Origin: a virus
IMG/VR virus record: IMGVR_UViG_3300025626_000015
Span: 1 to 64,000 of that record
Direction: 5' to 3' (one strand)
DNA: 64,000 nucleotides
The position numbers were made by a program, and so were the translations under genes. The stretch's first letter is position 1, and every line of letters starts with the position of its first letter. Positions 2,562 to 2,794 of the stretch are shown piece by piece. Below the pieces are notes generated by a model. That model was not told where the DNA came from. It searched no databases and worked only from the letters and a program-made list of their open reading frames with translations.

Positions 2562-2674
2562 TATTATATATTATAACAAGACGCCTGGACTATATTATAT
2601 ATAAGTCATAAGCAAGGGCAAGGATAGACTCGGGACTCCTTTTAATAAGACCCCGGGTCTATTCTACGTTCTAA

Positions 2675-2794
2675 GGGTATAGGGTAGGGGTTAGGGGTCT
2701 AAGGGGTAGAACTAGGGGGAGGGTGGGTCAAACCGGGGGCTATAGGGGGCTAAATAGGGGGGTAGGGGGGAGTTTCATTAAAACCCCTCCCCCT
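2675..2794. repeat. G-tract cluster (12 runs of G3-G6; G-quadruplex-competent) followed by a C-rich tract
   Basis: GGG/GGGG/GGGGG/GGGGGG runs separated by 1-8 nt spacers (2675-2770), then AAACCCCTCCCCCT (2781-2794). Confidence 0.85.

Follow-up and report, generated by a model that had tools for sequence, protein, structure and literature searches.

What kind of element packs a dozen guanine runs into less than 100 nt of a phage genome that is otherwise poor in G, and do related phages keep it? The question is raised by positions 2675-2770 (+ strand) of IMG/VR virus record IMGVR_UViG_3300025626_000015, a 75,717-bp contig from an uncultured marine T4-type phage, of 30% G+C and with G accounting for 16.4% of the bases. 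The first 64 kb of this contig (positions 1 to 64,000) form the window analyzed here, and among its products are a portal protein of T4 type and a major capsid protein of gp23 type.

The G-run array

A script count over the whole contig confirmed the original prediction, made from the letters of the window, that 12 runs of at least three G occur within these 96 nt. The runs measure, in order, 3, 3, 4, 4, 4, 5, 3, 3, 5, 5, 6, and 6 nt and are separated by A/T-rich spacers. The entire contig contains 190 such runs (∼0.25 per 100 nt), its second-densest 100-nt windows hold at most three, and by our own Poisson estimate the chance of 12 runs in 96 nt is ∼1e-16 per window. The view that nothing similar occurs elsewhere held for the window, for the remaining contig, and for a 173-kb relative. 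A G4Hunter-type scan (25-nt window), which had been proposed as a check, peaked at 2.52 in the array; the sole other region scoring at least 1.2 was 25119-25156 (1.28). Canonical G-quadruplex (G4)-forming sequences comprise at least four runs of G≥3 on one strand, with loops of 1-7 (up to ∼12) nt and a G4Hunter score above ∼1.2-1.5, and the array, with 12 runs, loops of 1-9 nt, and its score of 2.52, belongs to this class. The G4 model of ViennaRNA predicted two quadruplexes in the minimum-free-energy fold of the array, the energy changing from -80.7 to -126.2 kcal/mol, and the gain from G4-aware folding amounted to 23-60 kcal/mol. The array is situated in a 355-nt spacer, with a 121-codon ORF upstream and small ORFs downstream, and the plain RNA folding energy of this spacer was ordinary (z = -1.0; relatives, +0.06 to -2.6). 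An assembly artefact, a concern voiced with the original prediction, does not explain the array: over 2463-2875 the window agrees at every base with an independent assembly (a Logan contig from DNA run X1), and independent assemblies contain 30 distinct full-length versions.

Conservation of a single-copy noncoding module

Alignments with relatives (A1, A2, and A4) placed the array inside a conserved noncoding module of ∼297 nt (2598-2894, + strand). Protein-anchored and pattern searches located the module at the syntenic place in five more IMG/VR contigs and in 41 metagenome contigs, and its sequence was present in runs of 12 studies, almost all of them marine or seawater metagenomes. This conservation of position, with the G-tract kept, bears out the earlier suggestion of a structural cis-element. 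The 30 distinct full-length copies align over 268-280 nt, and every one of them carries 11-13 G-runs in a core of 90-92 or 100-102 nt (G fraction of 0.48-0.58), despite the gain and loss of inter-run spacers and of entire run-plus-spacer units. Module identity to the window was 77-89%, on par with that of a conserved AAA ATPase gene nearby, and this level persisted where the adjacent 121-codon gene showed 42-50% protein identity or no nucleotide match. That upstream ORF (2196-2561, + strand; 121 aa, without a Pfam match) is the last gene of an early-type cluster and is syntenic in most relatives, with 42-97% amino-acid identity. More generally, the flanking genes on both sides vary while the module persists, in a single copy both in the contig and in the 173-kb relative (IMGVR_UViG_3300021185_003351, 172,973 bp; hereafter G001). 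An ORF at 2723-2920 (65 aa) was rejected as a gene; a coding role is excluded because the G-runs contain 1-nt indels and the module lengths of 268-280 nt differ by non-multiples of 3.

The module has no description in Rfam, in deposited phage records, or in the literature retrieved by searching. Rfam yielded 0 matches in the window, where the best hit at E≤10 on 2500-3000 reached 17 bits compared to gathering thresholds of 45-99, and none in the modules of the divergent loci L069-L074. A 6-kb query against deposited phage records, in near and distant modes, gave no match, and a looser G-run pattern retrieved from IMG/VR, beyond the known members, only unrelated high-G+C contigs. Scanning prokaryote genomes with the module's 5' pattern returned 0 matches, and with them neither a host clue nor a cellular homologue. 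Among cultured relatives, Flavobacterium phage vB_FspM_immuto comes nearest, with a major capsid protein of 57% identity; neither strand of its genome contains a cluster of three G4 runs, and the sigma-factor region is not syntenic.

Hairpins supported by covariation

Four hairpins of the module (P1, P3, P5, and P6, all on the + strand) are supported by comparison of the aligned copies. The first was visible in the window as the palindrome AGACCC-C-GGGTCT, which is present at 2648-2660 as originally described; the conserved structure is the larger hairpin P1 (2621-2665), with a 14-bp stem and a loop of 17 nt in the window versus a GAGA tetraloop in most relatives. Among 30 sequences, the pair cells of P1 comprised 316 Watson-Crick, 103 G-U, and 1 A-C; five pairs vary through G-U only, and one pair switches from C-G to G-C. 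The excess of G-U over A-C (103 versus 1) therefore indicates folding of the + strand, more likely in the form of RNA than of single-stranded DNA. Upstream of P1, the 5' edge of the conserved block is formed by an A/T-rich, -10-like motif of putative promoter function, TATATAAGTCAT (2598-2609, + strand), which directly precedes GTCATAAGC even when there are upstream insertions (L033, L041, and L053).

P3 (2765-2794) pairs the last G-block of the array (2765-2772) with the only C-run (2787-2794) and encloses the conserved loop TTTCATTAA (2773-2781). Two of its pairs changed on both sides (A-U to G-C and G-C to A-U), amounting to 12 cells compared to ≤5 in slid controls, and the same layout of G-block, loop, and C-run recurs in L072, L152, L153, and L155. 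The C-run sequence CCCTCCCCCT (2785-2794) had been noted to be complementary to AGGGGGAGGG (2714-2723), such that a hairpin could compete with the G4. The complementarity is exact and the competition between G-tract and C-run is real, but the covariation favors the nearer G-block at 2765-2772 over 2714-2723. It suggests that at least the last two G-runs pair with the C-run rather than entering a quadruplex.

P5 (2833-2862) joins GAGCA to TGCTC around the conserved loop TAGATTTTTTGCTATATAGG and is followed by TTTATTAG. As read from the alignments, complementarity of its closing helix is kept among relatives as the sequence changes with lineage: GAGCA/TGCTC, AGCAC/GTGCT (L029), GGGT/ACCC (L072), and ACCGC/GCGGT (L074). 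P6 (2871-2885; ATATAC-AGC-GTATAT) marks the 3' edge of the module and can be wholly replaced with complementarity maintained (ATATAT/ATATAT, ATATGC/GCATAT, ATATGG/CCATAT, TATGCC/GGCATA, TATGGC/GCCATA, and TTAGGGC/GCCCTAA), being complementary in seven unrelated sequences. The motif TGCTATATAG occurs once per genome, and TTTTTTGCTATATAG was for that reason rejected as a promoter class, whether MotA-box-like or recognized by the phage sigma factor. Two other helices gained no such support. The long-range helix P0 (2607-2620 with 2858-2871), obtained from RNAalifold, was rejected: it shows no double changes and competes with P5 for bases, a core of 7 bp would arise by chance in 300 nt, and relatives as well as L007/L035 lack the 5' strand of the helix. 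Helix P2 (GGTATA/TATACC) likewise displayed no double changes in the alignment, and the array core has no conserved Watson-Crick pairing across the family.

A module built in this way might be a stand-alone structured noncoding RNA (ncRNA) of ∼280 nt, extending from the TATA-like motif at 2598-2609 to near P6, with an RNA G4 core that would act in trans, e.g., as a protein sponge or scaffold. Single-copy conservation at about the level of the neighboring ATPase gene fits this possibility, as do the several covarying hairpins with their + strand G-U signature, the conserved loop sequences, the -10-like motif that stays by the 5' edge despite upstream insertions, a G-run count fixed at 11-13 despite spacer turnover, and the 23-60 kcal/mol gained in the G4-aware fold. 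We nevertheless consider an independent RNA unlikely. The core is without a family-wide Watson-Crick fold, consisting of G-runs only in one clade and of G/C hairpins in the other (see below); P0, the helix that would close the structure, clashes with P5 and is absent from relatives; and in L070, L072, and L155 a strong terminator lies at the module's 5' end with no promoter behind it. Moreover, the RNA runs, examined as Logan contigs, contained no high-depth contig confined to the module, and a match in Rfam is absent.

Two core states in the wider family

Divergent relatives, found with an alignment of divergent ATPase homologues together with a 3'-domain pattern, extended the comparison. In these more distant phages, whose ATPases are 61-69% identical, a homologous module lies 0.7-2.3 kb downstream of the ATPase gene and shares with the window's module the blocks AGGGTATAGGG, GGGG(G)AGGGTTTCATTAA, GGGGTAGAACA, GGTTATATATG, and TTTTGCTATATAG...CTCTTTATTAG, as well as the terminal hairpin. 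The core exists in two states. A G-only core like that of the window is found in L072/L150, L152, L153, and L155, with 9-12 G-runs and 1-2 C-runs, and arrays of G-run/C-run hairpins are found in L069, L071, L073, L151, L156, and L159, with 5-7 G-runs and 4-7 C-runs. Individual units correspond between the states: GGGGTAGAACA-CCCCC in L073 to GGGGTAGAACAA-GGGGG in the window's clade, and GGGGTATAG-CCCC to GGGTATA-GGGG. On the ATPase tree, the G-only state forms one clade (support of 99/96; 11 rows, down to 64% identity) plus the separate case of L153. Because this clade is single and well supported, we take the G-only array to have been maintained for a long time rather than to have arisen accidentally. 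Judging from the aligned cores, the module as a whole requires neither G-richness nor a fixed Watson-Crick fold in its core. The original prediction foresaw neither the ∼300-nt module with its covarying hairpins nor this lineage-specific G-only state. A covariance model of the 3' domain (R1), run on 80 loci with ATPase relatives of greater distance, recovered no additional member and also missed the divergent copy in L074.

Runs that are G or C on the + strand depending on lineage matter least to double-stranded DNA, and the module could accordingly be a DNA-level element: either a phage or host protein would bind its array of G·C tracts, or its fragile, structure-prone DNA would be a hot spot of recombination from which cassettes are exchanged, in the manner of a large promoter-early stem-loop (PeSL). 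Its persistence while genes on both flanks vary would suit such a role, as would the 21-22 of 41 metagenome contigs that end within it and the deletion or replacement joints seen in reads between nearby promoter cassettes. The hairpin data speak for something else, since P5 and P6 keep complementarity and not sequence, as expected of a folded single strand rather than a duplex protein site, and P1 has its one-strand G-U bias. Furthermore, the G-only state is stable in a clade whose ATPase has diverged to 64% identity, so orientation matters there, and the runs have no fixed spacing. An element acting as duplex DNA consequently strikes us as improbable.

Position at the early-to-late gene junction

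The early-type cluster includes the sigma factor (13-726), the AAA ATPase (1043-1978), and, in last place, the 121-codon ORF; the module begins 37 nt past the stop codon of this ORF and ends just ahead of the promoter motif of the next gene. G001 revealed how this site relates to a whole genome. Its first and last 137 nt (self-overlap loci L013, 1-137, and L014, 19838-19974) are identical but for one mismatch; because of this self-overlap, we regard G001 as a closed circular assembly though it is classed as linear. In G001 and the window, over 173 kb, every plausible gene ORF of at least 120 codons lies on one strand. Along the direction of transcription, the module is followed by capsid-cargo genes with an MI(K/R)LK leader and then by virion genes; from ∼100 kb come genes for a DnaB-type helicase, ribonucleotide reductase, a family-B DNA polymerase, and ligase; and the circle returns to the module through small early genes, accompanied by repeated promoter cassettes, and the genes for the sigma factor and the ATPase. 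Early genes, among which the replication genes are counted, thus meet late virion genes in the direction of transcription at one point only, and this point is occupied by the module; the existence of just one early-to-late junction would explain why there is a single copy. In L069, L070, and L073 too, the capsid-cargo (MI[K/R]LK-leader) genes begin immediately after the module. Cumulative GC skew in G001 rises monotonically; the skew itself never changes sign, and its greatest drop on the circle (∼0.23 to 0.11) is located 0-2 kb past the module, which is consistent with a change of gene class there.

A genome end or packaging signal, one of the functions originally listed, is not supported by this analysis. 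Contig ends do gather at or near the module in many assemblies, as a physical end or a pac or cos signal would lead one to expect. However, the junction at which G001 closes through its 137-nt overlap is ∼0.7 kb away from the module, the module is bridged by many contigs, and contigs begin anywhere from -180 to -31 and stop anywhere from +40 to +280, a scatter over ∼400 nt in place of a single base. We therefore judge a genome end to be highly improbable. The ends lie at a polymorphic hairpin loop and at polymorphic G-runs, as would result from branching of the assembly graph, and were rejected as DNA ends.

A replication origin, also on the original list, fares better without becoming likely. 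T4-type phages use R-loop origins, and the module might be a transcription-primed R-loop origin like T4 oriF/oriG, with the leading strand starting along the direction of all genes. The properties that would suit this role are a unique, single-copy, complex noncoding module with A/T-rich DNA on either side, a G-rich non-template strand, a fully co-oriented genome whose + strand has more G than C everywhere, and the proximity of the largest skew discontinuity; G-T-tolerant hairpins are also compatible with single-stranded DNA. The R-loop/G4 version is weakened because C-runs (4-7) are as numerous as G-runs (5-7) on the same strand of the sister modules (L069, L071, L073, L151, L156, and L159), an arrangement unfavorable to a G-rich R-loop. 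In addition, the skew step coincides with the early-to-late change and never changes sign, so it is not replication specific, and neither an initiator protein nor a fixed-period iteron was found. An origin is a possibility that we hold to be rather unlikely. The comparison with T4 itself is mixed: the module resides in a T4-type phage and combines a putative promoter with a downstream region where a transcript could persist on its template, as at oriF/oriG, whereas the T4 origins rely on an A/T-rich unwinding element and are not known to rely on G clusters, and an origin role for the module is hypothetical.

Candidate terminators and promoters, and a putative transcription barrier

Scanning the window identified no + strand intrinsic terminator in the module, where P1 precedes ACGTTCTAA and P5 precedes TTTATTAG without a scored terminator. 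In L070, L072, and L155, the first hairpin past the upstream stop codon consists of a 6-7-bp G/C stem and then T6-T8; it was scored as terminator-like by the scan in L070 (4233-4252) and recognized by direct reading in L072 and L155. The P5 homologue of L070 was also scored as terminator-like. Within P5 lies a candidate sigma-70-type promoter (2846-2873, + strand), TTGCTA-16-TAGATA. This sequence fails the T-at-position-6 rule of the promoter scan, the variant TAGAAT is present in L027, L041, L062, L072, and L073, and the homologue in L072, TTGCTA-16-TAGAAT, scored 9/12. For all genes of the phage, the G-rich strand of the array is non-template. In metatranscriptome run X15 (marine), contig depth was ∼40-90 over 1-2670, 17 over 2671-2937, and 3-9 over 2938-4539, and one RNA contig that starts at 1517 enters the G-array and ends there; DNA run X1 exhibited only a ∼threefold fall over the same stretch. 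As these depths derive from assembled Logan contigs of different samples, summed over strains, they provide a weak hint.

Among the functions first listed for the array, a transcription barrier fits best, given a location after an early-gene stop codon, a terminator as the first hairpin in L070, L072, and L155, and a single early-late junction. We tentatively favor the view, to which we would grant slightly less than an even chance, that the module is a putative compound terminator/insulator plus promoter, with the G-array serving as a barrier that is G-rich on the non-template strand. Transcripts from the early cluster would first meet hairpin P1. The next ∼100 nt would present a G-rich non-template strand, and the nascent RNA may form quadruplexes and/or stay hybridized to the C-rich template. 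The G-block/C-run hairpin P3 would follow, and then P5 with its U-rich tail. Acting together, these parts would block read-through or cut it strongly, and the 3' end left behind would be structured and resistant to nucleases; the promoter embedded in P5 would restart transcription, P6 becoming the 5' hairpin of the new transcript. Sister lineages would form an equivalent barrier from G-run/C-run hairpins. Support for this compound device comes from its position at the early-late junction, the terminators of relatives, + strand folding, the orientation of the G-strand, the X15 depth, and the skew boundary. G-rich homopurine tracts on the non-template strand are described as blocking transcription in vitro (PMC3561996, PMC5499740), and RNA G4s are described as stimulating termination at mitochondrial conserved sequence block II, or CSB II (PMC3488243).

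Several considerations weigh against a compound terminator and promoter. The depth evidence is weak for the reasons given, and P1 in the window's clade has no U-run behind it. A 300-nt device with 12 G-runs seems to exceed what termination needs, because ordinary hairpin-plus-T5-6 terminators occur elsewhere in the contig (33069, 54979, 66949, and 74253). The conserved loops TTTCATTAA and TTTTTTGCTATATAG suggest a specific partner that the model leaves unnamed. If the first hairpin of L070, L072, and L155 is an efficient terminator, transcription would rarely reach the array that follows, and still the array is conserved. Finally, the polymerases for which blockage by G-rich tracts or G4s has been demonstrated are of the T7 and mitochondrial types; bacterial RNA polymerase in such a setting is not among them.

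A more specific proposal concerns the G-only clade. Its array might be a working G-quadruplex/R-loop device that was swapped in for the G/C hairpins: either a quadruplex terminator for bacterial RNA polymerase, or a CSB-II-like switch that ends the early transcript and primes replication co-directional with 173 kb of genes. We put this forward as a putative function of doubtful standing.

Comparison with known systems

The compound terminator/promoter would make the module a large, single-copy relative of the PeSLs, the composite terminator/promoter motifs in hyperplastic regions of T4-like phages (PMC4122927). Like them, it is found in a T4-type phage between small variable early genes, has a stem-loop (P5) overlapping a promoter-like sequence, TTGCTA-16-TAGA[A]T, and constitutes a conserved island between exchangeable genes, with three ∼80-nt PeSL-like cassettes just upstream. 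Unlike the short, multi-copy PeSLs, the module is ∼300 nt long and present once, its G-runs (or G/C hairpins) form an array of 100 nt that is joined by three more covarying hairpins, and its key motif TGCTATATAG is unique in the genome, so that it is not a repeat. By sequence, then, the module appears akin to the intergenic terminator/promoter junctions of T4-like phages, the replacement of hairpins by a G4-prone core of putative role being unusual.

Other termination systems share some of these features. Ordinary intrinsic (Rho-independent) or tandem terminators resemble the module in following a stop codon, in the G/C stems and T6-T8 of L070, L072, and L155, and in the TTTATT after P5; they differ in that most stems of the window's clade lack a C-rich partner, P1 has no U-run, and the module is ten times longer. 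CSB II, as it is presented in PMC3488243, likewise has non-template G-runs downstream of a promoter in an A/T-rich genome, and a G-rich structure of the nascent RNA or hybrid would stop the polymerase there and could double as a replication primer site; it consists of one G6AG8-type block transcribed by a single-subunit polymerase, in contrast to the 11-13 runs of the module and its presumed bacterial multi-subunit polymerase. R-loop-mediated blockage by homopurine tracts, as covered in PMC3561996 and PMC5499740, resembles the module in that the G-rich strand is non-template for every gene. That work concerns T7 RNA polymerase and continuous tracts in vitro, whereas the runs of the module are broken by pyrimidine-containing A/T-rich spacers.

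The array is kept at 11-13 runs in a clade of very abundant marine T4-type phages (>2,000 ATPase variants, 12 studies). To our knowledge, bacteria and phages seldom have conserved, selected G4-prone arrays, and genomes of 30% G+C have them even less often. Sister lineages with G/C hairpins in the homologous module offer a ready comparison of whether a G4 array can replace hairpins. If the module acts as a barrier, it would show how a one-strand phage keeps early transcription out of its late genes; if the G-only array is a G4/R-loop device, a bacterial virus would provide a natural example, replicated across the phylogeny, in which G4s and hairpins are interchangeable functional modules. In any event, the module is an unannotated target for RNA-motif databases.

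Neighboring genes and other motifs

The flanks of the module contain several additional features. The AAA ATPase (1043-1978) has Walker A (GGAGLGKT) and Walker B (VLDDCD) motifs and more than 2,000 near relatives in a large protein collection; 120 homologues among the matches listed are all 98-100% identical. Weak homologues, annotated as hypothetical, occur in ∼1,300 deposited T4-like phage genomes, and the ATPase is a widespread, uncharacterized T4-type early protein. Beside the ATPase gene, L071 (8019-8130) and L072 (6815-6911) have Rfam tRNA matches of 112 and 97 nt, over normal tRNA length, which may be tRNAs with an insertion; ARAGORN detected no tRNA gene in the window or G001. The full sigma-70-family protein (regions 1.2, 2, and 4) encoded at 13-726, 2 kb upstream of the module, is unusual for T4-type phages, which normally use gp55 or MotA/AsiA.

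Immediately after the module, a 72-codon ORF (2917-3135) begins with a lipoprotein-like signal (MKSTILISILCLYGITLSC/S) and is preceded by a promoter-type motif, TTATATTTA (2901-2909, + strand), that lies outside the module and recurs in the repeated early cassettes and ahead of many downstream genes. This ORF is kept in many relatives and replaced in others, making the downstream flank variable. Ordinary + strand terminators, each with a perfect 8-12-bp stem and then T5-T6, are located farther along the contig at 33029-33076, 54940-54986, 66910-66956, and 74214-74260; their presence indicates that the host polymerase uses standard terminators elsewhere.

The three intergenic cassettes of ∼80 nt (721-801, 966-1045, and 1975-2062) resemble PeSL motifs of T4-like phages. 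They share AAACTTTTCT..., a -35/-10 pair (e.g., TTGACA-17-TATATT), CCTTATATTTA, and AGAGATATG, in which ATG is the start codon, and they look like sigma-70 promoters on the basis of the TTGACA-17-TATATT pair. In G001, the cassettes are grouped at 168.1-171.4 kb just ahead of the module, with one more beyond it. Joints in reads from 760 to 2045 and from 1029 to 2006 reveal strains in which the stretch between cassettes has been deleted or replaced. Many downstream late-type genes carry a different motif, (T)ATATTTATA(T), 3-35 nt ahead of their start codons (3453-3460, 7138-7145, the 33052 region, 39916-39923, 43761-43768, 49881-49888, and others), which is a candidate late promoter or leader motif. 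For TATTTATA, the contig has 27 copies on the + strand versus 7 of the reverse complement.

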